Made by a program: the position numbers and the translations under genes. 64,000 bases of DNA from Escherichia coli (GTDB lineage: Bacteria; Pseudomonadota; Gammaproteobacteria; Enterobacterales; Enterobacteriaceae), in NCBI RefSeq assembly GCF_029227855.1, contig NZ_CP074356.1. The stretch is one strand, 5' to 3'. Positions 5,181 through 27,652 of the stretch are shown here, one piece after another (the first letter of the stretch is position 1; the number at the start of each line of letters is the position of its first letter). The notes under the pieces are model-generated. The model had not been told where the DNA came from. It searched no databases and saw only the letters and a program-made list of their open reading frames with translations.

Positions 5181-5213
5181 GCCGGATGCGACGCTAAAGG
5201 CGTCTTATCCGGC
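5181..5213. repeat. REP (repetitive extragenic palindromic) element
   Basis: gccggatgcgacgctaaaggcgtcttatccggc, close to the enterobacterial REP consensus; sits between convergent genes. Confidence 0.6.
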
Positions 5214-5219
5214 TGATAA

Positions 5220-6197
5220 TTACCCCAATAAATTCCTCACCGTCTGACTGGAAATTCGCGCCTGACCATTCACCGCCTGCAATAAAACTTGATAGTTATG
5301 ATTGGCGCTATCCAGCACGCCGCCGAGATTTTCCGACGCCTGCACGGCGCTTTCCGTTTGCGGGAAGCGCGACATGCCGTCGATCAACTGCCGCGCCTTT
5401 TCCTGCTGTACCGCCATCTGCACACGCTGCTGATTAATGCTTTCTAACGTCTGAGAAATCCCCGCTCCGCCCTGTTGCAGGCTTTGCACTAAGCGGTCCG
5501 CCTGCGACGGTTCGGCAAAGGTTTTTAGTGGCATAAACGCTGATTTATCACCATCGGTGCGCACGCTTAGGGTGCTTTCAATGTTGGGCCACTGTTTTTC
5601 AGTGGTGGAGAAACTTATACCATCGGCGTTTTGATGCATCTGCACGCCCACGCGGCGCAGGGCGTTGGTCAGCCGCGTCTGGTACTGCCCAGCGCTGTCA
5701 TCCTCAGACAGCATCACCGCCGAAAGCTGAGTCTGCCGCCCGTCAGAGACGCTGAACATGCGCGTTCCCGGCGTGGGATTGTGTACGAGATTCGCCAGAT
5801 CCGGCGAGTGAAAAGTCACCCGCGCTTCCCCCTGCAACACTGGCTGCAACTGGCGGTCCACCGCACCGCCGGAAAGCGCGGTGCGTTTGTCCAGCATCTG
5901 CATCAGCGCCGAACTCTGCGCCTGCCCGCCCTTACGCTGGCTATGACGATAATCGAGCAACTGCTGCTCCAGTTGCCCGAGATAGTGATCCGCCTGCTGC
6001 AACGTGGTGAGCTGGTCGTTAAGCTGCACGCTGTAACGCTGCGGGCGAGTGGTAATCAGCGGCGAGGCCGGATATTCACTCGCCGTCGCCGGGAGTTTTT
6101 GCCGCACCTCCTGAGTGGGCGCAACGGTTGACGACGATACCGCAACGCTATGCGCGCCGCCGGTGGCGAGTGACGAAGATGTAAATCCGACCTGCAT
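5220..6197 (-). CDS. hypothetical Flag-2 protein, 325 aa, with flagellar axial-protein-like C-terminus (possibly lafW)
   Basis: ORF track; C-terminus ...NHNYQVLLQAVNGQARISSQTVRNLLG resembles the C-terminal helix of flagellar export substrates; directly downstream of flgL in the same orientation. Confidence 0.4.
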   Translation of the reverse strand: MQVGFTSSSLATGGAHSVAVSSSTVAPTQEVRQKLPATASEYPASPLITTRPQRYSVQLNDQLTTLQQADHYLGQLEQQLLDYRHSQRKGGQAQSSALMQMLDKRTALSGGAVDRQLQPVLQGEARVTFHSPDLANLVHNPTPGTRMFSVSDGRQTQLSAVMLSEDDSAGQYQTRLTNALRRVGVQMHQNADGISFSTTEKQWPNIESTLSVRTDGDKSAFMPLKTFAEPSQADRLVQSLQQGGAGISQTLESINQQRVQMAVQQEKARQLIDGMSRFPQTESAVQASENLGGVLDSANHNYQVLLQAVNGQARISSQTVRNLLG

Positions 6198-8534: not shown

Positions 8535-8610
8535 GTTGGATCCTTACCGGTAAATCGTGCCGGTTAAAAGCGGCGTTAGGTTGGGGATTCTTAAGTGGGA
8601 GGTGGTGCCC

Positions 8611-10690: not shown

Positions 10691-10731
10691 GTTCTGCCTG
10701 TTTTAAATACAGTGAGTTATGCGCTTTTGTA

Positions 10732-10763
10732 GGTCGGATAAGACGCGTCAGCGTCGCATCCGA
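10732..10763. repeat. REP-like palindromic element in the flgG-flgH intergenic space
   Basis: ggtcggataagacgcgtcagcgtcgcatccgac; reverse complement resembles the REP consensus. Confidence 0.5.
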
Positions 10764-10772
10764 CATTTCGCC

Positions 10773-11558: not shown

Positions 11559-11584
11559 GGTGGTTTATTCCCTGGTGTCTGTTA

Positions 11585-16646: not shown

Positions 16647-16773
16647 CGCGAATACCTTCCCCCATCGCGGAAATGGATTTTCCGCCTGATTCACAATCCT
16701 TTGTTTTTGATTATAAAAATTCCCGGCACGCTTATTGCACATTCCGCAAAGTAATAAAGACTGGAAGCCACCT

Positions 16774-17703: not shown

Positions 17704-17717
17704 AGCCGCTCTCGATC

Positions 17718-17753
17718 GGTCCCCTCGCCCCTTCGGGGAGAGGGTGAGGGGCA
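17718..17753. repeat. GC-rich imperfect palindromic intergenic repeat, copy A
   Basis: ggtcccctcgccccttcggggagagggtgaggggca; its reverse complement aligns closely with the copy at 27433-27474. Confidence 0.6.
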
Positions 17754-17809
17754 AAGCACGCACAGCCCTCCTTACCCATCAAATTAACCCCTTAACTCAC
17801 CTAAACACC

Positions 17810-20281
17810 ATGCCAACACCAACCCTCATCAAAACACTCGCCACTCACCGCGAAAAACCGTTCGTCAGCGTCGTCACGCCCACATGGAACCGTAGCGCAT
17901 TCCTGCCGTACCTGCTCTATATGTACCGCTATCAGGATTACCCGGCAGACCGCCGCGAACTGGTCATCCTCGACGACTCGCCGCAAAGCCATCAACACAT
18001 CATCGACCGCCTGACCAATGGCACACCGGAAGCCTTTAACATCCGCTATATTCATCACCCGGAAAAACTGCCACTGGGCAAAAAACGCAACATGCTCAAC
18101 GAACTGGCGAGCGGCGAATACATCCTCTGCATGGACGATGACGACTACTACCCGGCAGATAAAATCTCTTACGCCATCGCCATGATGCAAAAACACCGGG
18201 CGCTCATCTCCGGTTCCGACCAGATCCCCATCTGGTACAGCCACATCAATCGCATCTTCCAAAGCCGCAGCTTTGGCTCACATAACATCCTCAACGGCAC
18301 CTTTTGCTATCACCGTAACTACCTGAAAAAGCACCGTTACGACGATGATTGTAATTTAGGCGAAGAGAAAAGTTTCACCAACAATTTCAGCGTTAACCCG
18401 CTACAACTGCCCGGCGAGCGCACGATTCTGTGTATCTCGCACAGTCACAACACCTTTGATAAAGATTTTATTCTCGGGGCTAGCACGCCAGTAAACGCGG
18501 CGCTTACGGATATCGTCCGCGATCCGCTGCTGCGCAATGCTTATCTGAGTCTGCATAACGCCACTCATCACCAGGCGATCGATCAGGTCGTACTGATCAA
18601 TCTGGATAAACGCCCGGATCGCTTACAGCAGATCCGTGAAGAACTCACATTGCTGTATATTCCGCCTGAGAAGATCACCCGCCTTGCCGCCAGTGAAAAT
18701 GAAAACGGTCAACGGGGTCGCCGCCAGTCACACTTGCAGGCGCTGCGCCTGGCGCAACAGCACGGCTGGCAAAACTACCTGCTGCTGGAAGATGACGCAG
18801 TTATTCTCAAGCAGGAGAAACATATTCAGGTACTGAACACGCTGCTCGCGAGCCTGGCGAAAATTCCCTGGCAGGTGATGATCCTTGGCGGCGAAATTTC
18901 GCAGGGAACGATGCTAAAAAGTTTGCCGGGGCTGGTGCACGCGCGGGACTGCCGCAAAGTGTGCGCTTATCTGGTGAACAGTCGCTACTACCCGCAACTG
19001 GCGCAGCAGATGAGCCACAATGAACACTCGCTGGAAGACGGCTGGCAGCCGCTGCTACGCGCCGACAAATGGCTGGCCTGTTACCCGAGCCTTAGTTATC
19101 AGCGACCGGGCTTTAGTGATATCGAGAAAAAAGTGACCGACAACATTGCTCACTATTTCAATAAGTTACCCGTTATCACAAAGCCATCCGCATTACCCAT
19201 CGCCGACACCATCGGCTTTTTTATGGAAACCTCCTTCCACTACGCGCTCTACCGCCCAATCATCACTGCTCTACAGGTGCAGGGGCAGAGCTGCACGCTG
19301 GTGATCAATGACCGCGTGTTTAAACCGTTTCTTGATGAGATGCTGGAAACACTGAAAAACATCGACGATCCGCAGCTTAAAGGAATGCGCTTATCTGAAA
19401 TGCAGGCACACGGTCAGCGGGTGAAATGCCTGGTCAGCCCCTACCACACGCCCGCGCTCAATGGCCTGGCAGCGGTGAACGTTCGCGCCATGTACGGCTT
19501 AGCCAAAGAGACGTGGAACCACGCCGACTGGAACCGTTTTTATCAACGCATTTTGTGTTACAGCCACTACAGCCAGCGGGCGCTGGCGCATTTCGGCAAT
19601 GCAAAAGCAGTCGGCAACCCGCGCTTCGACGCCTGGCATAACGGCACGTTTGCCCGCACTCTGCCGGAAAATATTCAACCCGATTCCCGTAAACCTACGG
19701 TGCTCTATGCCCCCACGTTTGGCGCATTAAGCTCCCTGCCCCACTGGGCAGAAAAATTAGGCCGCTTAAGTGGCAATGTGAATCTGATTTGCAAACTGCA
19801 CCACGGCACCTGCTCGCGCCCGGAAGAAGCGGCATCGCTGGCCCTGGCGCGCAGGCATTTAAAACAGCGCACCGACTCCGCCCGCCACACGCTGGCGCTG
19901 CTGGCAAAGGCCGATTACGTGCTGACCGATAACAGCGGCTTTATTTTCGATGCTATTCACGTTGATAAGCGGGTGATCCTGCTCGACTTTCCGGGCATGG
20001 CAGCGTTGCTCGACGGTGAGAAAAGTTACTCCACGCCGGAGAGCGCCGATCAGCAAATCCGCGAAATATTGCCGGTGGCTCATGATATGGCAGAGTTGCG
20101 TTACTTGTTGTCAGAGGCGTTTGACTGGGGGGCGGTGCAGGCGCGGCTTACGAAGATTCGCCATCACTATTGCGATGCGTTTATGGATGGCAAAGCGGGA
20201 GAACGGGCGGCGATGGTGATTGTGGAGGCGCTGGCGGACAAGGAATCGTCAGGGATATGTCGATATAATTCGATTTTTTAA
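17810..20281 (+). CDS. multidomain glycosyltransferase, about 823 aa: N-terminal GT2-like, central GT25-like, C-terminal CDP-glycerol glycerophosphotransferase (TagB/TagF-like)
   Basis: ORF track (17744-20281); start set at ATG 17810 (MPTPTLIK...). N-terminus VSVVTPTWNRSAFLP...LDDSP...CMDDDDYY (DXD motif); middle VVLINLDKRPDRLQQI...LLLEDDAVI; C-terminus TVLYAPTFG...KLHHGT...VLTDNSGFIFDAIHVDKRVI. Domain calls by eye, unverified. Confidence 0.7.
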   Translation: MPTPTLIKTLATHREKPFVSVVTPTWNRSAFLPYLLYMYRYQDYPADRRELVILDDSPQSHQHIIDRLTNGTPEAFNIRYIHHPEKLPLGKKRNMLNELASGEYILCMDDDDYYPADKISYAIAMMQKHRALISGSDQIPIWYSHINRIFQSRSFGSHNILNGTFCYHRNYLKKHRYDDDCNLGEEKSFTNNFSVNPLQLPGERTILCISHSHNTFDKDFILGASTPVNAALTDIVRDPLLRNAYLSLHNATHHQAIDQVVLINLDKRPDRLQQIREELTLLYIPPEKITRLAASENENGQRGRRQSHLQALRLAQQHGWQNYLLLEDDAVILKQEKHIQVLNTLLASLAKIPWQVMILGGEISQGTMLKSLPGLVHARDCRKVCAYLVNSRYYPQLAQQMSHNEHSLEDGWQPLLRADKWLACYPSLSYQRPGFSDIEKKVTDNIAHYFNKLPVITKPSALPIADTIGFFMETSFHYALYRPIITALQVQGQSCTLVINDRVFKPFLDEMLETLKNIDDPQLKGMRLSEMQAHGQRVKCLVSPYHTPALNGLAAVNVRAMYGLAKETWNHADWNRFYQRILCYSHYSQRALAHFGNAKAVGNPRFDAWHNGTFARTLPENIQPDSRKPTVLYAPTFGALSSLPHWAEKLGRLSGNVNLICKLHHGTCSRPEEAASLALARRHLKQRTDSARHTLALLAKADYVLTDNSGFIFDAIHVDKRVILLDFPGMAALLDGEKSYSTPESADQQIREILPVAHDMAELRYLLSEAFDWGAVQARLTKIRHHYCDAFMDGKAGERAAMVIVEALADKESSGICRYNSIF

Positions 20282-20359
20282 ACATGTCGTTGGAATACGT
20301 TTATGCCATCGACATGTTTTAGGGATATGTCGAAAAAACGCGATTTTTTAAACATATTT
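20251..20359. other. structured intergenic element: two ~39-bp direct repeats bracketing a 10-bp-stem hairpin, between convergent glycosyltransferase and cytidylyltransferase genes
   Basis: Direct repeats agggatatgtcga...cgattttttaaacat at 20251-20289 and 20321-20359; inverted repeat aaacatgtcg (20280-20289) / cgacatgttt (20310-20319) with 20-nt loop. Confidence 0.6.
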
Positions 20360-20410
20360 AACATAGCCAAACGGCAGACGGCATCATCTTCTCTCACCGC
20401 GGGAATTAAA

Positions 20411-20815
20411 TCAGTAGGTGGCTGATTTACCCCTAATCACCTCAATGATCCCCGTCGTCGATACCGATGGCGTACGGGGAAAATAGACCACCTCACAGAC
20501 ACACGAGAAATCGTCAAACTTCCCCGCCCAGTCATCGCCCATCACCAAAATATCCGCACCGTACCCCCGCAAATACTCCGCTTTCTGCTCCAGCGATTCC
20601 TCCAGAAATACGCCCTCCACGCACGCCAGCCCGGCGATAATCGCCATGCGGTCATCCTGATGGTAAACCGGTGCCCTGCCCTTTTTGGCGATGTTCAAGG
20701 CATCGGACGATACGCCGACCAGCAACCGTTCGCCCAGCGTGCGGGCGCGTTGTAAAAGGCGCAGATGACCGACGTGAAACACATCAAAGGTGCCGAAGGT
20801 GATGACCGTTTTCAT
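20411..20815 (-). CDS. glycerol-3-phosphate cytidylyltransferase (TagD-like), 134 aa
   Basis: ORF track; MKTVITFGTFDVFHVGHLRLL... (HxGH motif) and ...MGDDWAGKF...CEVVYFPRT..STTGIIE closely resemble TagD-type cytidylyltransferases; last gene of the fliE-fliJ operon. Confidence 0.8.
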   Translation of the reverse strand: MKTVITFGTFDVFHVGHLRLLQRARTLGERLLVGVSSDALNIAKKGRAPVYHQDDRMAIIAGLACVEGVFLEESLEQKAEYLRGYGADILVMGDDWAGKFDDFSCVCEVVYFPRTPSVSTTGIIEVIRGKSATY

Positions 20816-20817
20816 CG

Positions 20818-21252
20818 CTACTCCGCTAATTTATGCCGTAGCCAGCACTGAACGGCAATGTCATCCACCGCTTTTTGCGCTTTCGCCGTGGCGCTTTCCT
20901 GCTGCTCGCGGCGTTTGTCGTCCAGCGTCAGGACCACCACTTTCTCTTCGCACGCCGCCGCCGTCAGGTTTTTCTGCATTCGCGTGGCTTTGATGTTAGC
21001 CAGCGTTTTTTCCTGTTCCTGCCAGGCGATCACCTTGCGCAGGGTGCCTTTGTAGCCGCTGACGTTTTTCAGTGATTCCACCGACGCCGCCGCGCCCGCA
21101 GACGTTTTCTCTACCAGGTAGCCTAACGCCTTGATATTGTTGTCATAGCCCGCGCAGATCTGTTTTTGCTTTGCCAGCTCGACAGTTTTGTCTTTGACCG
21201 ATTTATCCCGCAGGCGCTGCAACTGCGCCAGGGTGTCGATGATTTGTCGCAT
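20818..21252 (-). CDS. lfiJ: FliJ-like export apparatus protein (Flag-2 LfiJ)
   Basis: ORF track, 144 aa coiled-coil protein downstream of fliI. Confidence 0.65.
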   Translation of the reverse strand: MRQIIDTLAQLQRLRDKSVKDKTVELAKQKQICAGYDNNIKALGYLVEKTSAGAAASVESLKNVSGYKGTLRKVIAWQEQEKTLANIKATRMQKNLTAAACEEKVVVLTLDDKRREQQESATAKAQKAVDDIAVQCWLRHKLAE

Positions 21253-21254
21253 GG

Positions 21255-22592
21255 TTACTGTTCTGCCTTTTTGGCACCAGGAAAGAGGATTTGCAGGCGG
21301 CTTTGCACCAGTTCCAGGGAGGCGGGTTCGCGCATCTCCTGGCGCAAAAATCGCTCGATAGCCGGGAACATTTTTACCGCTTTGTCGACGCTGGCGTCGG
21401 CACCTGCCACGTAGCCGCCGAGCGGGATCAGCGGTTTGATCTCCATATACGCGGCGTAGTTTTGCTTTAACGCACGGGCGGATTGCTGATGTTCCAGGCT
21501 GGTCACCTGATTCATGCAGCGGCTGATCGACTGGCCGATATCAATGGCCGGATAGTGCCCCGCTTCCGCCAGTTTGCGGGTTAATACGATATGCCCGTCC
21601 AGCACCGCACGGGCGCAGTCGACAATCGGATCTTGCTGGTCGTCGCCTTCCGCCAGCACGGTGTAGATTGCGGTCATCGATCCCGTGCTTTCGTTGTTGC
21701 CTGCGCTTTCGACCAGCTTGGGGATCATGCCGAATGCCGATGGCGGATAACCTTTGGTGGCGGGCGGTTCGCCGAGCGAGAGGGCAATTTCCCGCTGCGC
21801 CATCGCGTAGCGGGTCAGGGAATCCACCAGCAGTAAAACGTGATGCCCACGGTCGCGAAACCAGGCGGCGATGGAGTGGCACAGTTCGGTGGCTTTCAGG
21901 CGCATCAGCGGCGATTCATCGGCGGGCGCGACAACAACGATAGACTTTGCCAGCCCGTCCGCGCCCAGCGAGTGGTCGATAAACTCTTTCACTTCGCGCC
22001 CGCGTTCGCCAATCAGCCCGACCACCACAATGCCGGCTTTGGTCTGGCGGGTGATCATCCCCAGCAGCACGCTTTTCCCGACGCCACTGCCCGCCATCAG
22101 CCCGACGCGCTGGCCTTTGCCGATGGTCAGTAGGCCGTTGATCGCTTTCACGCCCACGTCCAGCGGTTCGTCCACTGAACGGCGGGTTAAGGGATTAACC
22201 GAGGGCGGTAGCGGCGGCAGAAGGTCGTTGCCGTTCAGGCGGCCTTTGCCATCCAGCGGTTCGCCGAGGCCATTCACCACGCGGCCTAACCAGCTTTCGC
22301 CAATCAGGATGTCGTGGGCTTTTTCTTCCGGGAAGACGCGCGCCCCCGCCATCAGGCCGACCGGCTGTTTAAAGGGCATTAAGTAGGTGATATCGCGATT
22401 AAAGCCCACGGCCTGCGCGTCGATAAGCGTGTGATTGGCGCTTTCGATGCGGCACAGCTGCCCGGTCATTAGCGGGCAGCCGACACTCTCCAGCAGGATG
22501 CCGTTTAGGCGCACCAGCCGCCCGGCGACGCGGGCCAGCGGGATCGACTCCAGCGAGCGCAGCGCGTTATCGAAAGCGGAAAAATCACTCAC
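21255..22592 (-). CDS. lfiI: flagellar export ATPase FliI (Flag-2 LfiI)
   Basis: ORF track, 445 aa; Walker A GSGVGKS and F1/T3SS-ATPase-like sequence. Confidence 0.9.
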   Translation of the reverse strand: MSDFSAFDNALRSLESIPLARVAGRLVRLNGILLESVGCPLMTGQLCRIESANHTLIDAQAVGFNRDITYLMPFKQPVGLMAGARVFPEEKAHDILIGESWLGRVVNGLGEPLDGKGRLNGNDLLPPLPPSVNPLTRRSVDEPLDVGVKAINGLLTIGKGQRVGLMAGSGVGKSVLLGMITRQTKAGIVVVGLIGERGREVKEFIDHSLGADGLAKSIVVVAPADESPLMRLKATELCHSIAAWFRDRGHHVLLLVDSLTRYAMAQREIALSLGEPPATKGYPPSAFGMIPKLVESAGNNESTGSMTAIYTVLAEGDDQQDPIVDCARAVLDGHIVLTRKLAEAGHYPAIDIGQSISRCMNQVTSLEHQQSARALKQNYAAYMEIKPLIPLGGYVAGADASVDKAVKMFPAIERFLRQEMREPASLELVQSRLQILFPGAKKAEQ

Positions 22593-23295
22593 CCTGAGAC
22601 TCCGGCGTTAGGGTTTCTTTCAGTGCGGTCATGCACTGTTCCAGGCGATGCTCGCAGCCGATATCCAGTTCTGATTTATCAGTGATCACCCGGCATTCCC
22701 CCGGCGGCAGATCCGGCGAAGGCGTCAGCCCCCATTCACTGACCTTTTCCGGCACCGCGTCGCGCAGGCGGTTAAATTCTTCCGTGCTCAGCATTACTTG
22801 CAGGGTCTCCGGCATCGCCGGGAAGGCCGCCAGTGCCTCTTCCACCAGCGCCAGCAACTGCGTCGGTTGCAGCGCCAGTTCGCAGCGGATCACCTGGCGG
22901 GTGACTTTTTCCACCAGTTGCAACAAATCTTCCCGCTGTTTACGTTCGATATGGGCGAGGAAGTCGTTCACTTTTCCGGTGATGGCTTCCAGCGGCTGCG
23001 CCGCCTCAACAAACTGTTTGCGCCCTTCATGCTGCCCGGCGAGGCTGCCTTCGGTGTAACCCTGGCGTCGCCCCTCGGCAAAACCTTGCTGATGACCTTC
23101 GCTAAAGCCCTGCTCCTGACCTTCGGTCATTCCCTGAGCAAAGCCTTTTTGCAGCCCTTCCTGAAAACCGTCCATCAACTGGCGCTGGTAATCGGCGGCG
23201 CTGATGCTGGCGGTGAGCGGTTCTCCGGTCACCGCACGCTGGCGCGGCGGGAAACGATGCAGGCGATAGCGCCCGCGCAGTGTTTCAATGGTCAT
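22585..23295 (-). CDS. lfiH: FliH export regulator (Flag-2 LfiH)
   Basis: ORF track, 236 aa; contains GFxEG-type repeats (GFQEGLQKGFAQGMTEGQEQGFSEGHQQGFAEG) typical of FliH; overlaps the fliI start. Confidence 0.7.
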   Translation of the reverse strand: MTIETLRGRYRLHRFPPRQRAVTGEPLTASISAADYQRQLMDGFQEGLQKGFAQGMTEGQEQGFSEGHQQGFAEGRRQGYTEGSLAGQHEGRKQFVEAAQPLEAITGKVNDFLAHIERKQREDLLQLVEKVTRQVIRCELALQPTQLLALVEEALAAFPAMPETLQVMLSTEEFNRLRDAVPEKVSEWGLTPSPDLPPGECRVITDKSELDIGCEHRLEQCMTALKETLTPESQGE

Positions 23296-23298
23296 GGG

Positions 23299-24309
23299 TT
23301 ACTCCGCCGTCTGTTCCGCAAAGAGCTGTAGCTGAATTTCGCCCGCCTCTTCCAGTTCACGGGCGATGCCCATGATTTCGCGGCGGATCTGTTCGATACG
23401 GCTGACCGGTACCGGCCCCAGACGCGCGGTAATGGCTTCCAGTTGCTGCGCCTGACGTTTTGGCATTACCGCGTAAATCGAGCGGCGCAGCAGGGCTTCG
23501 GTGCCTTTCAGCGCCACCGCCCAGTCTTCCATCGGCACTTCGTCAAGCAGACGTCGACGCACCTCTTCGTTCTGGCGGCTGAGGATAAAGAAGTCGTACA
23601 TCTCATCCTGAAGCTGCTCCAGCACCTCTTCGTCGCGCTCGCGCATCTGGTCGAGGATCACCTGCTGGTTGCCCTGGAAGCGGTTGACGATATCCGCCGC
23701 CTGTTTGATGCCTTTCACCTTCGAGCCGTGTTCCGAAAGCACCGACAGGCCGCGTTCGATCAGCCTGTCCAGTTCATCCACCACGTCGCGGTTGACGTCG
23801 TTGAGTTTCGCCACCCGATAGAGAATTTCGTTTTGCACCGATTCATTGAGATACGAGAGCACCGCCGCCGAGATTTCCGGCGTCAGAAACGCGAGGAACA
23901 CCGCCTGCAATTGCAGATGCTCTTCGGAAATCAGCATCGCTAACTGGCGCGGTTCCACCCATTGCAGGCGCGCCATCCGCGAGCGGATCTCATCGCCGTA
24001 GATGCCATTGATCACGCTGCTGGCGATCTCGGTGCCGAGGGCTTTGTTAAGAATGCCCTGCAACATGGATCGCGATGCGCCGTTGATCCCGCTCTGTTCG
24101 CGGAACTCGTCAAAGAAGTTATTGATCACTTTGCGCGCCATGCTGGTTTTAACGCCGGAAAGCCGCGCCATGTTTTCGCTCAGGCGCACCACTTCTTCGC
24201 GGCTGAGTTTTTGCATCACCGTCGCCGCCGCTTCTTCGCCAAGGCACAGCAGCAGGATCGCCGCCTGTTCCAGGTAGCTGTTGCTCTTATTTGTTGTCAA
24301 TTCGCTCAT
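23299..24309 (-). CDS. lfiG: rotor/switch protein FliG (Flag-2 LfiG)
   Basis: ORF track, 336 aa; FliG family by eye; overlaps the fliF end. Confidence 0.85.
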   Translation of the reverse strand: MSELTTNKSNSYLEQAAILLLCLGEEAAATVMQKLSREEVVRLSENMARLSGVKTSMARKVINNFFDEFREQSGINGASRSMLQGILNKALGTEIASSVINGIYGDEIRSRMARLQWVEPRQLAMLISEEHLQLQAVFLAFLTPEISAAVLSYLNESVQNEILYRVAKLNDVNRDVVDELDRLIERGLSVLSEHGSKVKGIKQAADIVNRFQGNQQVILDQMRERDEEVLEQLQDEMYDFFILSRQNEEVRRRLLDEVPMEDWAVALKGTEALLRRSIYAVMPKRQAQQLEAITARLGPVPVSRIEQIRREIMGIARELEEAGEIQLQLFAEQTAE

Positions 24310-25933
24310 TGCTGGTGATCCATTGTCTGAGAACTTCGGCTACGCGATCGGTGTCGCTCATGGCCAGTTTTTGCAGGAACTCGAGTTTCACTTCGAGGCC
24401 GGAACTCTGGGACGGCAGGCTGTCATCGCCGGGCAGCGACGGCAGGTCGACGTTTTTGCGCTCCTCTTCCGGCATGGCAATCCACGGTTCGCTGACAGCT
24501 TCCGGTTCTGGTGTGATAACCGGCGCACGCACCGCCGTCAGGCGTTTCATTACCGGGCGCACCACAAAGAACAGCAACAACAGCGCCAGCAGGCCGCAGC
24601 CAATCAGGCGTACCCAGGCCAGCACGCTGTCATCTTTCCACAGCGGAATAATTGGTTCGACCGGCACCGCCTGCGGGACAAAGTTAAGCAGCGATAAGGT
24701 GAGATTGTCACCGCGCTGGACGTCGATCCCGGCGGCATTGTTCAGCAACGCGGTCAGTTGCGCAGTCTGCTCCGGCTTCCAGTTTTTCAGCGCCGGGGCG
24801 TTTTGATTGAGCACCACCGCCACGTTGAGGCGTTTCACCGCAAAACCAGGATGCTGAATATGCTGGACGCTGCGGTCGTAAGAGTAATCGCGCTTGCTTT
24901 CGCTGTGTTTGGATAACGCTTCCGGTGAGCGGTTTTCTTCCGTACCGTTGGTCATCTGATTCGCCGCAACTGGCGGACGGTTGCTGAGTGAACCGGGCAC
25001 GCCCATCGCCACCTGATTGGTGTCGCTGTCCAGCACGCTCTCTTCGCGGTTGATTTTCGGCGCGTCGCCGTAGTGTTCCTGGGTTTCGTCGATGGTACTG
25101 AGGTCGAGATCCGGCATCACGCTGACGCGGTAATTCCCCGTACCAACCAGCGAATCCAGCACGTTCGCCACGCTGGCGCGGGTTTTGTCCTGAATATCTT
25201 TGAGGATCTGATCGCGTTTACGGGTTGCGGCAGAAACCGCCTCGCCTGCGCCAATGCCGTCGGTCAGCAGATTTCCCGCCTGATCGACGACGCTGACTTT
25301 GCTGGCCTGTAGCCCCGGAATACTGCCGGACACCAGATGCATAATGGCGTTGACCTGGTCCATATTCAGCTTCGCGCCATAGTGCAGGCGCACCACTACC
25401 GAGGCGCTGTTTTGTGGCTCATCGCTGACCACAAACGAGCTTTCTTCGTTGAGCGCCAGATGCACCCGTGCGCTCTCCACCGCGTCCAGCGACATAATGC
25501 TCTGCGCCAGCTCCCCTTCGAGGCTGCGTTTGTAGCGCACGTTCTGCACGAACTGGCTGCTGCCGAGCACTTCGTCTTTGTCCATCAGCTCGTAGCCGCT
25601 GGGCAATATCGCCTGCACACCTTTGGCGGCAAGGGTCATGCGCGTTTTCGACAGTTCACCTTCCGGCACCAGTATCTGCCCGCTCTGCGGGTCGATGCGA
25701 TAGCTGAGCTTTTCGCCGTCCAGCACGGTGACAATCTGCGACACGGGCAGATTTTCCTGGCGTCCGTAGAGCGAGACGTAGCCGCGATTACCGGTCCACA
25801 GCACACTAACGATAATCGCCGTTGCCGCCACGGCAAGCCCCACTCCCGCCATCAACGCCCAGCGTTTGTTATCTGCGAGGCGCAGTCGAAACGCCGGAAA
25901 CGCCTGGGTTAACTTCTTTATTTGTGCATTCAT
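24287..25933 (-). CDS. lfiF: MS-ring protein FliF (Flag-2 LfiF)
   Basis: ORF track, 548 aa; N-terminal TM segment, FliF family. Confidence 0.9.
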   Translation of the reverse strand: MNAQIKKLTQAFPAFRLRLADNKRWALMAGVGLAVAATAIIVSVLWTGNRGYVSLYGRQENLPVSQIVTVLDGEKLSYRIDPQSGQILVPEGELSKTRMTLAAKGVQAILPSGYELMDKDEVLGSSQFVQNVRYKRSLEGELAQSIMSLDAVESARVHLALNEESSFVVSDEPQNSASVVVRLHYGAKLNMDQVNAIMHLVSGSIPGLQASKVSVVDQAGNLLTDGIGAGEAVSAATRKRDQILKDIQDKTRASVANVLDSLVGTGNYRVSVMPDLDLSTIDETQEHYGDAPKINREESVLDSDTNQVAMGVPGSLSNRPPVAANQMTNGTEENRSPEALSKHSESKRDYSYDRSVQHIQHPGFAVKRLNVAVVLNQNAPALKNWKPEQTAQLTALLNNAAGIDVQRGDNLTLSLLNFVPQAVPVEPIIPLWKDDSVLAWVRLIGCGLLALLLLFFVVRPVMKRLTAVRAPVITPEPEAVSEPWIAMPEEERKNVDLPSLPGDDSLPSQSSGLEVKLEFLQKLAMSDTDRVAEVLRQWITSNERIDNK

Positions 25934-25937
25934 AGGG

Positions 25938-26279
25938 TTAGATCGACATACTCATCAGATCGTTAAATCCGGTGGCGATTTTGTTGCGCACCTGCACCAG
26001 CGCGGAGAACGAGAGCGACGCCTGCTGGCTGGCGATCATCGCACCTGCCAGGTCATCACTTTTGCCCGTGTCGACAGCCGTTTGCTGCTGCTCTGCCACC
26101 TGCTGGAACTGGTCTACGTGACCGAGCGCGCCACTCATAATGCGGTTAAACGAAACGTCAGGATTGGTGGAACTGAAGGTCATGGCGGGCAGCACCGGCG
26201 CCTGGGCGTTGGCCTGCATCCGCTGCACGTCCTGCATGATTTGCGCCTGCATGGTGCTGTTGATTGTGGTAATGCTCAT
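25938..26279 (-). CDS. lfiE: hook-basal body protein FliE (Flag-2 LfiE)
   Basis: ORF track, 113 aa; position upstream of fliF; FliE-like C-terminus. Confidence 0.75.
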   Translation of the reverse strand: MSITTINSTMQAQIMQDVQRMQANAQAPVLPAMTFSSTNPDVSFNRIMSGALGHVDQFQQVAEQQQTAVDTGKSDDLAGAMIASQQASLSFSALVQVRNKIATGFNDLMSMSI

Positions 26280-26293
26280 TTTTAACTTCCGGG

Positions 26294-27280
26294 TCAGGAG
26301 AAAACTTCGATACCTTGCTTGCGCATGGAGGCCAGTCGATAGCGCAGTGCGCGCGGGGTAATGCCTAACAGGTTGGCGATTTTGCTGCGGTTGCCCTGAT
26401 ATTTACGCATCAGGTCGGCGATATATTGATATTGCGCGCTTCGTCCGTGCTGGCCTAAATCGCAGGTTTCAGCAATGTGGACGGCGGGCTGAACAGGCCA
26501 TTGCAGTTCGCTGCGGTCGGCAACGTCCGTTTCCGGCAGGCCTAAGGCGTCCGGGTAAATTACGCCGTCGCGGTTTAAAATCATTCCCCGCTGAATGGCG
26601 TTCTCCAGCTGGCGCACGTTGCCGGGCCAGCGGTAATTGAGCAGCGCCCGGCGGGTAGATTCTGAAAGGGTGATATTTTTCACCAGCACCGTGGAGTATT
26701 TTTTAATAAATGACTCTGCCAGCGGAATAATATCGTTCAGACGTTCACGCAGCGGCGGCATGGTAATAGGGATTACCGCAAGACGATAATAGAGATCTTC
26801 ACGAAAACGCCCTTCGGCGACTTCCTGCTCAAGGTTTTTATTGGTACAGGCAATCAGGCGAAAATTGAGTTTAATTTGTCGGTTGCTGCCTAATCGCTCA
26901 ACCTGCTGTTCCTGCAATACGCGTAATATTTTGACCTGTAGCGCCAGCGGCATATCGCCAATTTCATCGAGCAATAAGGAGCCGTTATTCGCCAGTTCCA
27001 TTTTTCCTGGCACGCTGGCAATTGCGCCGGTAAATGCACCTTTGTCGTAGCCAAATAAGGTAGATTCCAGCATATTTTCCGGGATCGCCGCGCAGTTCAC
27101 GCCGACATAGGGTGCGCTTTCATTTTCACCAAAGGCTACGGTGTGAATATATTTTGCCACGCACTCTTTGCCCGCGCCGGTTTCGCCCTGAATGAGCACC
27201 GGCACGTTAAAGGCGGCGACACGCTTTGCCAGAGTAAAAGCGTTAATGCTGGAAGCGGCAGTTGCAATAAGTTCAGACAT
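26294..27280 (-). CDS. lafK: sigma54-dependent transcriptional activator without receiver domain (LafK-like)
   Basis: ORF track, 328 aa; AAA+ sigma54-interaction domain (GETGAGKE Walker A, GAFTGA-type loop) and C-terminal HTH; divergent from the fliM operon. Confidence 0.85.
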   Translation of the reverse strand: MSELIATAASSINAFTLAKRVAAFNVPVLIQGETGAGKECVAKYIHTVAFGENESAPYVGVNCAAIPENMLESTLFGYDKGAFTGAIASVPGKMELANNGSLLLDEIGDMPLALQVKILRVLQEQQVERLGSNRQIKLNFRLIACTNKNLEQEVAEGRFREDLYYRLAVIPITMPPLRERLNDIIPLAESFIKKYSTVLVKNITLSESTRRALLNYRWPGNVRQLENAIQRGMILNRDGVIYPDALGLPETDVADRSELQWPVQPAVHIAETCDLGQHGRSAQYQYIADLMRKYQGNRSKIANLLGITPRALRYRLASMRKQGIEVFS

Positions 27281-27432
27281 AGGGTGAACGATATAAGTAG
27301 CGACAGAAAACAGGATGTTCTGAAGCGTATCACCGGCGGGATTAACAAGTTCGAATTAAACGATAATAAAAATATTATTTGATGGTAAACAATGAGTTAG
27401 ATATTAATACTGTTAATTGCGACATCTGTGAT

Positions 27433-27474
27433 GCCCCCTCACCCTAACCCTCTCCCCGGATGGGGCTAGGGGAC
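27433..27474. repeat. GC-rich imperfect palindromic intergenic repeat, copy B (inverted relative to copy A)
   Basis: gccccctcaccctaaccctctccccggatggggctaggggac aligns with the reverse complement of 17718-17753, with small insertions. Confidence 0.6.
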
Positions 27475-27652
27475 AGACCGCAGACTGATTGGCGAAAATC
27501 ACTCCCATTAAGCAATTAATCGATTAATTATTTTTTCATCCTATTAATAATTTGCCCCTTTCACTCCCCCTCTATTTAATACCTCACCTTGTGTCACTGC
27601 CGGATTTGCGTGCACAAAATCGCCCATACCATTACAGCAGAGAAAGTAAGCC

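Follow-up and report, generated by a model that had tools for sequence, protein, structure and literature searches.

Many bacteria, E. coli among them, carry BoxC, a short dispersed repeat of intergenic DNA that numbers about 20-30 copies per E. coli genome. First described beside fabI/envM, it has been treated in the literature as BoxC, as the PIT element and as the TMECO triplex motif (Bergler et al. 1992; Bachellier et al. 1999; Hoyne et al. 2000; Hoyne & Maher 2002; Holder et al. 2015, PMC4666352), and so has been known since 1992, with biophysical and genomic characterisation from 2000 to 2015. The unit consists of a C-rich block and a complementary G-rich block, which pair as a hairpin, followed by a second G-rich block that, in single-stranded DNA, can double back and supply the third strand of an intrastrand purine-motif triplex. 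The strict TMECO pattern is 5'-CCCTCNCCC-N3-6-GGGNGAGGG-N3-GGGNGAGGG-3', and mutated members are described as common (Holder et al. 2015, PMC4666352). Published counts for MG1655 stand at 23 strict copies and 32 BoxC. Isolated strands, as consensus type A and type B oligonucleotides, form a stable triplex in vitro by CD and NMR; no triplex footprint was seen in vivo at another BoxC copy than those treated here; tests of PIT elements detected neither promoter nor terminator activity, nor any effect on RNA polymerase; and variability at TMECO loci exceeds that at control intergenic sites (PMC4666352).

The stretch of E. coli DNA analysed here, hereafter the window, is 64 kb long and carries a Flag-2 flagellar locus. 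Two copies of one repeat, copy A (17719-17752, plus strand) and copy B (27433-27474, minus strand), lie within 9.7 kb of each other and have a common core of 27-28 nt. A preliminary description of this DNA had reported two inverted copies of a single GC-rich repeat family at these places, with copy B matching the reverse complement of copy A apart from small insertions, and both points are borne out. The plus strand of copy A aligns to the reverse complement of copy B, the two being set apart by indels of 1 nt and 6 nt and by a few substitutions; loop 1 of copy B has one extra nucleotide (A), and copy B reads GGGTTAGGGT where copy A reads GGGT. The pattern GTCCCCTMGCCCC-N1-6-GGGGAGAGGGT matches exactly twice in the window, at 17719-17745 (plus) and 27447-27474 (minus), against a chance expectation of 0.00 from 100 shuffles. 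No third copy occurs in the window, either strictly or with up to three substitutions allowed. The word palindromic, also used in that description, needs qualifying: the whole element is no simple palindrome, as a third, G-rich block follows the hairpin. For uniform scatter of 17-30 copies per genome, the probability of at least two copies in a 64-kb window is about 0.02-0.06. Evidently the Flag-2 spacers are rich in repeats, and two copies are somewhat above the uniform-scatter expectation.

The core of copy A (17719..17752, plus strand) corresponds to BoxC/TMECO type A minus 6 nt (GGGTTA/TTAGGG). Its C-rich block, CCCTCGCCC, occupies 17722-17730, and the first G block, GGGAGAGGG, follows loop 1 at 17736-17744. 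Fusion has removed the second loop and most of the third block, and GGGTGAGGG at 17742-17750 overlaps block 2. With its flanks, GCCGCTCTCGATCGG on the 5' side and CAAAGCACGCACAG on the 3' side, the full BoxC-like extent is approximately 17706..17765 (plus strand) by alignment, beginning 3 nt past the stop codon of the lysine-N-methylase gene and ending 45 nt before the glycosyltransferase ATG. The orthologue in WP4-S18-ESBL-07 is full length (GGGGAGAGGGTTAGGGTGAGGGG), and TMECO no. 29 of O157 Sakai equals copy A except for the 6 nt. As DNA, copy A gives a 13-pair hairpin (-10.7 kcal/mol, z -2.45), the only fold that stands out, and counting of triads by base rules finds no intact third block. 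Copy A is a decayed type-A element, of the class that Holder et al. call TMECO mutated. A 6-nt slippage deletion between two AGGGT repeats would have left a plain hairpin where there had been three blocks.

Copy B (core 27433..27474, minus strand) is also of BoxC/TMECO type A, with TTA as its second loop, and reads on the minus strand GTCCCCTAGCCCC-ATCC-GGGGAGAGGG-TTA-GGGTGAGGGG-GC. On the plus strand the order is CCCTCACCC (27436-27444), TAA (27445-27447), CCCTCTCCC (27448-27456), a loop (27457-27462) and GGGCTAGGG (27463-27471); the full BoxC-like extent with flanks is 27424..27482 (minus strand), again an approximate, alignment-based figure. A C-to-A change in the C-rich block creates a second stem mismatch. 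Counted by base rules rather than by folding, copy B has 7/9 Watson-Crick pairs and 9/9 allowed triads, compared with 8/9 and 9/9 for the consensus. Folded as DNA, its hairpin does not surpass those of shuffled sequences (z +0.27). It is a full-length type-A element, slightly mutated, with one extra stem mismatch.

The preliminary description had not been able to place the repeat in any named family, but the family can be named: it is BoxC, the PIT element or TMECO triplex motif. A regular-expression scan of the window with the strict TMECO pattern returns zero matches. Copy B misses the pattern by one substitution (CCCTAGCCC), and copy A by three forced substitutions owing to its six missing nucleotides. 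Since the orthologous copies in SMS-3-5, 042 and WP4-S18 satisfy the strict pattern, the window copies are mutated members. In an alignment that sets copies A and B beside two orthologues and six BoxC copies of K-12, among them TMECO no. 9 upstream of fabI (envM), 30 columns do not vary. Similarity continues beyond the 37-nt core, with flanks CGRTCGGTCCCC and GGGG-AAAGCGCGCACAG common to the aligned copies. Both sites are already in the published catalogue: orthologous copies are listed in Table S8 of Holder et al. 2015 (PMC4666352) as nos. 153-155 for SMS-3-5 and nos. 507-508 for strain 042. By mapping onto annotated genes, nos. 153 (site B, that of copy B) and 154/155 (site A, that of copy A) were located in NC_010498, and nos. 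507/508 (site A) in NC_017626 (strain 042). The SMS-3-5 orthologue of copy B is no. 153, NC_010498 261597-261633, CCCTCGCCCCATCCGGGGAGAGGGTTAGGGTGAGGGG.

Both copies are intergenic, as the family requires. Site A (lafV/glycosyltransferase) is a 106-bp gap between co-directional cargo genes for a lysine-N-methylase (stop 17703) and a GT2 glycosyltransferase (ATG 17810). Site B is a 372-bp gap between the divergent genes lafK (sigma-54 activator, 26294-27280, minus strand) and the FliM-like lfiM (27653, plus strand), and copy B lies in mid-gap. Placement at operon junctions, as first described, is clear for site B but not for site A, a co-directional gap.

A 61-nt probe taken from copy B was searched against 5426 complete E. 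coli genomes. It matched in 5425 of them, at a median of 17 places per genome (maximum 29), and 83,035 of the 83,078 places are chromosomal, the other 43 being on plasmids. A scan of genome contigs with the strict TMECO pattern gave at least 120 matches over about five genomes, a sample that is anecdotal as to distribution. BoxC copies elsewhere occupy varied intergenic contexts, including spacers within operons such as pstA-pstB of K-12. The genome-wide search and the comparison with the catalogue identify a known repeat that is ubiquitous and shows no bias of position, its sites variably occupied, which is the outcome that the preliminary description had named as its own refutation. The particular link to flagellar operon junctions that was implied earlier falls away given the varied contexts elsewhere and the strain-variable occupancy.

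Other identities were considered. The REP consensus GCC(G/T)GATGCG(A/G)CG, or GCCKGATGCGRCG motif, is absent at copies A and B, which rules out REP/BIME elements at either. A Rho-independent terminator, a GC-rich stem-loop followed by a run of T, was rejected as well: no terminator-like site coincides with either copy, and the sequences after the copies are CAAAGCACG and CATCACAG. No sigma-70-like site was found at copy A or copy B, and the sigma-54-like sites found are located away from both repeats. A search of the whole window with the Rfam 15 families at the gathering threshold gave 0 matches.

Strains differ markedly at these spacers. At site B the variable part is a cassette of roughly 120 bp (27402..27522, approximate, from alignment) with BoxC at its center. 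In most Flag-2-bearing E. coli the cassette is replaced by a segment of roughly 139 bp with a REP pair (BIME), and at this site EC958, F5656C1 and 042 have alleles with REP consensus matches. With at least 80% query coverage required, the BoxC allele is counted in 57 genomes and the REP/BIME pair in 1213, so that the REP pair stands in place of BoxC in 95% of Flag-2 loci at this site. The BoxC allele is well conserved in its 57 carriers (98.4% identity over 61 nt among the matches listed). Site A carries from one to three copies according to strain, and orientation varies also: one truncated copy in the window strain, one full copy in WP4-S18, a collapsed pair in d1-58, an inverted type A plus type B pair in SMS-3-5, RM8385 and 042, and three copies, including a tandem array of 73-bp period, in EC1515. 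In the flgG-flgH spacer (10691-10772 in the window), strain 042 has a BoxC pair and the window a single REP. The window has BoxC where most strains have a BIME at lafK/lfiM, and a REP where 042 has a BoxC pair at flgG-flgH. Two other spacers, empty in the window, carry REPs in strain 042. A REP motif of the window also lies at 5181.

The reading we hold with considerable confidence is that both features are BoxC copies without a flagellar-specific function, neutral or selfish DNA that makes its spacers unstable. That the two copies lack any function specific to this locus is most likely, as judged from their polymorphism and from published tests on other copies. The copies occupy the few non-coding spacers that Flag-2 has, presumably because insertions there are tolerated, and would persist as neutral or selfish DNA. 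Slippage at replication, together with template switching from one near-identical G block to the other or from copy to copy, could then delete short stretches, duplicate units in tandem, collapse pairs and replace entire spacers. We infer both the neutral or selfish character and the slippage mechanism; a mobile selfish element is not demonstrated. No transposase or target-site duplication was identified for BoxC. No empty-site allele for a BoxC insertion was found, at lafK/lfiM among the sampled rows or otherwise; the flgG-flgH and lafK/lfiM alleles differ across the whole spacer, with no clean insertion.

The exchange of BoxC with REP/BIME at the same spacers could be given a more active meaning. 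The Flag-2 spacers might be shared landing pads where BoxC and REP/BIME displace each other either way, at which a common mechanism installs or swaps the two unrelated kinds of repeat, or at which selection keeps some structure-forming, supercoil-absorbing element between the transcription units. We consider this improbable.

An equally improbable proposal places the role of copy A in RNA, where, if copy A is part of a lafV-glycosyltransferase message, a REP-like hairpin would shield the upstream cistron from 3'-5' exonucleases or lower expression of the glycosyltransferase. The 106-bp gap between the co-directional genes has neither a promoter-like site nor a coincident terminator-like site, and the nearest sigma-54-like site, 16724-16739, is upstream of the methylase gene, which makes co-transcription of lafV and the glycosyltransferase gene plausible. 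The hairpin calculated for the RNA is -23.4 kcal/mol, and the K-12 copy at pstA-pstB provides a case of BoxC within an operon, pst. However, the RNA fold is no better than those of composition-matched shuffles (z -1.3), copy number from one to three and varied orientation among strains sit poorly with such a role, and PIT elements lacked terminator activity or any effect on RNA polymerase in the published tests.

Less probable again is a role of copy B in DNA topology, by which negative supercoiling driven by transcription from the divergent promoters would extrude a hairpin or an H-DNA-like triplex and so tune lafK and lfiM, with REP/BIME as a functional substitute. BIMEs are reported to bind gyrase and IHF. 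The mid-gap position between divergent genes agrees with the proposal, as do the triplex formed in vitro by the isolated strand and a site that is essentially always filled among the sampled rows, whether by BoxC (57 genomes) or BIME (1213). Yet copy B has two Watson-Crick stem mismatches and a DNA hairpin no better than shuffles, another copy showed no triplex footprint in vivo, published tests found no promoter effect, and a permissive spacer equally predicts occupancy by two unrelated repeats.

Chance resemblance, or a regulatory inverted repeat particular to this locus such as an enhancer site for LafK, can be dismissed almost entirely: both copies are indeed in non-coding parts of a locus under sigma-54 regulation, but the common core is expected 0 times by chance in shuffles, the same sequence recurs at about 17 unrelated places per genome, and site B holds a REP pair instead in 95% of Flag-2 loci.

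For BoxC copies of this kind the practical value of the result is in annotation, and its value as discovery is small. BoxC carries no annotation in RefSeq records, including that of K-12, at the sites examined; it is therefore rediscovered repeatedly as a palindrome without a family, and may wrongly be taken for a regulatory site. The Flag-2 locus offers a compact example of BoxC sites as hotspots for small rearrangements, a view already published, and it also shows BoxC and REP alternating at the same spacers.

Among known systems, H-DNA and mirror-repeat tracts resemble BoxC in having homopurine-homopyrimidine blocks that permit G*G:C, A*A:T and T*A:T triads. Classical H-DNA requires a mirror repeat in duplex DNA under supercoiling, whereas the BoxC design is intrastrand and its folding is shown only for the isolated single strand in vitro. 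ERIC/IRU and other enterobacterial MITE-like repeats are likewise dispersed, intergenic, hairpin-capable and strain-variable. ERIC, however, is about 127 bp long, with terminal inverted repeats and unrelated sequence, whereas BoxC, at about 56 bp, is built of three blocks with purine/pyrimidine asymmetry. REP/BIME elements come nearer: they too are short GC-rich imperfect palindromes, strictly intergenic and polymorphic for presence or absence, and they share Flag-2 spacers with BoxC, at site B in most strains and at flgG-flgH in the window. Their sequence is unrelated to that of BoxC, and a genome holds hundreds of REPs. A RAYT transposase is associated with REPs, and interactions with gyrase, IHF and Pol I are reported for them; nothing of this kind is known for BoxC. 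BoxC insertions adjoining BIMEs are said to have been reported in Genetics in 1997 by Bachellier et al. The closest relatives are the BoxC/PIT/TMECO elements themselves. Copy A differs from them in its six missing nucleotides and its lack of an intact third block, and copy B is one base off the strict pattern through its extra C-to-A change. In the three-block sequence, the type-A TTA loop, the conserved flanks and the intergenic position, the window copies agree with the family, and their sites show its arrangement as singles or inverted type A/type B pairs and its local instability.

Two inverted copies of one GC-rich repeat lie in the Flag-2 locus, which encodes a secondary, lateral-type flagellar system, at the positions where the preliminary description had placed them. 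Copy A (GTCCCCTCGCCCCTTCGGGGAGAGGGTGAGGGGC) occupies 17719-17752 on the plus strand, and copy B (GTCCCCTAGCCCCATCCGGGGAGAGGGTTAGGGTGAGGGGGC) is read on the minus strand from 27474 to 27433. Pairwise alignment gives a common core broken by a 1-nt and a 6-nt indel, which agrees with the earlier view of copy B as the reverse complement of copy A apart from small insertions. The pattern GTCCCCTMGCCCC-N1-6-GGGGAGAGGGT matches these two copies only in the 64-kb window, with 0.00 matches expected from shuffles, and a scan with the family's block motif, permitting up to three substitutions, found no third copy there.

Both copies are mutated members of the family known as BoxC, PIT or TMECO. A 61-nt probe around copy B finds matches in 5425 of 5426 complete E. 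coli genomes, at a median of 17 and a maximum of 29 places per genome, nearly all chromosomal. In K-12 the same element stands upstream of fabI (envM), the gene adjoining which "box C" was first reported by Bergler et al. 1992, as cited in PMC4666352. By the same source's summary of earlier work, BoxC was first reported in the 1990s and found again in 2000 by Hoyne et al. as a potential intrastrand triplex (PIT) element. Holder et al. 2015 introduced the name TMECO for the pattern CCCTCNCCC-N3-6-GGGNGAGGG-N3-GGGNGAGGG, with 23 strict copies in MG1655, invariably intergenic and without strand bias; type A has a TTA second loop and type B a CCG second loop, and inverted A/B pairs are common (PMC4666352). 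A separate survey (PMC2267715) gives BoxC a length of 56 bp and counts 32 copies in E. coli. An alignment of copies A and B, six K-12 copies and two orthologues has 30 invariant columns, with conservation reaching into the flanks (CGRTCGGTCCCC ... GGGG-AAAGCGCGCACAG).

Orthologous copies at both sites were already catalogued in Table S8 of Holder et al. 2015: no. 153 (NC_010498 261597-261633) is the SMS-3-5 copy between lafK and lfiM, the FliM-like gene, while nos. 154/155 of SMS-3-5 and nos. 507/508 of strain 042 are the same pair in the methylase/glycosyltransferase gap. The preliminary description could assign no named family; the K-12 MG1655 RefSeq record (NC_000913.3; L004 5200-5250, L130-L134) carries no repeat feature at the six BoxC sites examined, so a reader of sequence only was unable to name the element. 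The genome-wide search and comparison with catalogued families proposed there return a ubiquitous known repeat whose placement is not tied to this locus, the outcome under which that description was prepared to give up its claim. REP/BIME, ERIC, a terminator and any Rfam family were rejected as identities for the copies; Rfam gave 0 matches across the whole window.

Copy B is of type A and, relative to the SMS-3-5 orthologue, carries a single C-to-A substitution in its C-rich block. Because of this change its Watson-Crick stem has 7 of 9 pairs, against the family's usual 8 of 9, and it stands one base off the strict published pattern; by a base-rule count all nine purine-motif triads are still permitted. 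Copy A has 6 nt fewer than the full-length WP4-S18-ESBL-07 orthologue and O157 Sakai copy no. 29 (GAGAGGGTTAGGGTGAGG to GAGAGGGTGAGG). The missing unit is flanked by two AGGGT direct repeats, a probable signature of slipped-strand deletion. Copy A has no intact third block (the second G-rich block) and instead a longer plain hairpin, predicted as DNA to have 13 pairs at -10.7 kcal/mol (z -2.45). "TMECO mutated" and hairpin-forming derivatives are frequent (Holder et al., PMC4666352).

Copy A lies in a 106-bp gap between the stop of the lysine-N-methylase gene lafV (17703) and the ATG of the GT2 glycosyltransferase gene (17810), both on the plus strand; these are cargo genes of "variable region 1", the lfiJ-lfgN interval (PMC6993521). 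Copy B lies in a 372-bp divergent gap between lafK, a sigma-54 activator (26294-27280, minus strand), and the FliM-like gene (27653, plus strand). No sigma-70-like, sigma-54-like or terminator-like site coincides with either copy. Sigma-54-like matches are no more numerous across the window than chance; two with one mismatch each, just upstream of flgB (15082-15067, minus strand, TGGCACGGTAATTGCC) and 35 nt upstream of the methylase start (16724-16739, plus strand, CGGCACGCTTATTGCA), are consistent with LafK/sigma-54 control. Since the latter stands upstream of the methylase gene, copy A may lie inside a transcript. The earlier placement at operon junctions therefore fits copy B in its divergent gap, but perhaps not copy A. 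BoxC and REP occupy intra-operon spacers of Flag-2 as well as junctions, and in K-12 the gaps that hold BoxC are variously convergent, co-directional or intra-operon (tauD/hemB, adk-hemH, zntA/tusA, pstA-pstB, yjdP/phnP).

The window matches the Flag-2 locus of E. coli JNEC-KY178, its nearest complete genome, at 99.94% identity across 25.5 kb (1 mismatch, one 15-bp gap). At about 18571/18572, in the glycosyltransferase gene (17810-20281), the window is without one 15-bp in-frame unit, part of an imperfect tandem duplication (CAGGCGATCAACCAT / CAGGCGATCGATCAG); the sole other difference is a SNP at 6109. Because flgC and the glycosyltransferase are both annotated as intact in JNEC-KY178, the window's locus may be functional. 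RefSeq marks flgC as frameshifted in 042 (L135 17971-18404) and notes an internal stop in the glycosyltransferase of d1-58 (L009 358-608).

BoxC and REP swap at the same Flag-2 spacers in both directions, as the opposite occupancies of two spacers between strains reveal. At lafK/lfiM the window has a single BoxC in a cassette at about 27402-27522; this cassette occurs in 57 genomes at query coverage of at least 80%, a REP-pair (BIME) cassette holds the same position in 1213, and no empty allele appears among sampled rows. The flgG-flgH exchange runs the opposite way, with 82 bp and a single REP (GTAGGTCGGATAAGACGCGTCAGCGTCGCATCCGACA) in the window (10691-10772) and 206 bp with an inverted BoxC pair in 042 (Table S8 nos. 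509/510). Two further spacers are clean BIME presence/absence polymorphisms within the flagellar operon: flgF-flgG (11559-11584), 26 bp and repeat-free versus 178 bp with three REPs in 042 (L135 21072-21249), and flgJ-flgK (8535-8610), 76 bp and repeat-free versus 175 bp with two REPs (L135 24322-24496). At lafV/glycosyltransferase the window has one truncated copy, WP4-S18 one full copy, d1-58 a collapsed pair, SMS-3-5, RM8385 and 042 an inverted type A plus type B pair, and EC1515 three copies, including a tandem array of 73-bp period. Assuming 17-30 copies per genome, the probability of at least two in a 64-kb window is about 0.02-0.06; two within 9.7 kb are only mildly unexpected and fit a locus with generally repeat-rich spacers.

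On the best-supported reading, copies A and B belong passively to a repeat family that is neutral or selfish. They would have no role specific to Flag-2, and their tangible effect would be local instability. Holder et al. found TMECO loci to vary markedly more than control intergenic regions and put forward slippage and template switching to explain this (PMC4666352). These processes could yield the 6-nt deletion, the 73-bp tandem duplication, the collapsed pair and whole-spacer replacement, and the variants at Flag-2 spacers agree with that explanation. The isolated strand folds into a stable triplex in vitro; the duplex form gives none, and none was detected by DMS footprinting in vivo (PMC4666352). 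As summarized in that paper, a PIT element is a block to DNA polymerase in vitro, and in vivo PIT elements showed neither promoter nor terminator activity and left RNA polymerase unaffected. Copy A might conceivably act as a REP-like mRNA hairpin, and copy B might have a supercoiling or H-DNA role between divergent promoters; both roles are possible if weakly supported, and strain polymorphism and negative results in published assays tell against both.

The strict three-block pattern also occurs far beyond Enterobacteriaceae in a contig scan whose listed matches cover about five genomes (L010-L129). In Mitsuaria chitosanitabida NBRC 102408, a member of the Burkholderiales, strict copies number at least 130; among the matches listed, they have their own loop (GCTTGC) and a conserved 3' flank (tcttcgggct) and often form inverted pairs. 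The matches listed also include several copies in a Methylomirabilota MAG (JACPAT01) and copies in a Ca. Contendobacter MAG, one of them near-identical to E. coli type A. As regards the E. coli copies, the finding is already known, since the literature covers the family, its distribution and even both Flag-2 loci. Only one observation is mildly new, namely that BoxC and REP exchange reciprocally at identical Flag-2 spacers, and boxC insertions near BIMEs were reportedly already noted by Bachellier et al. in 1997.
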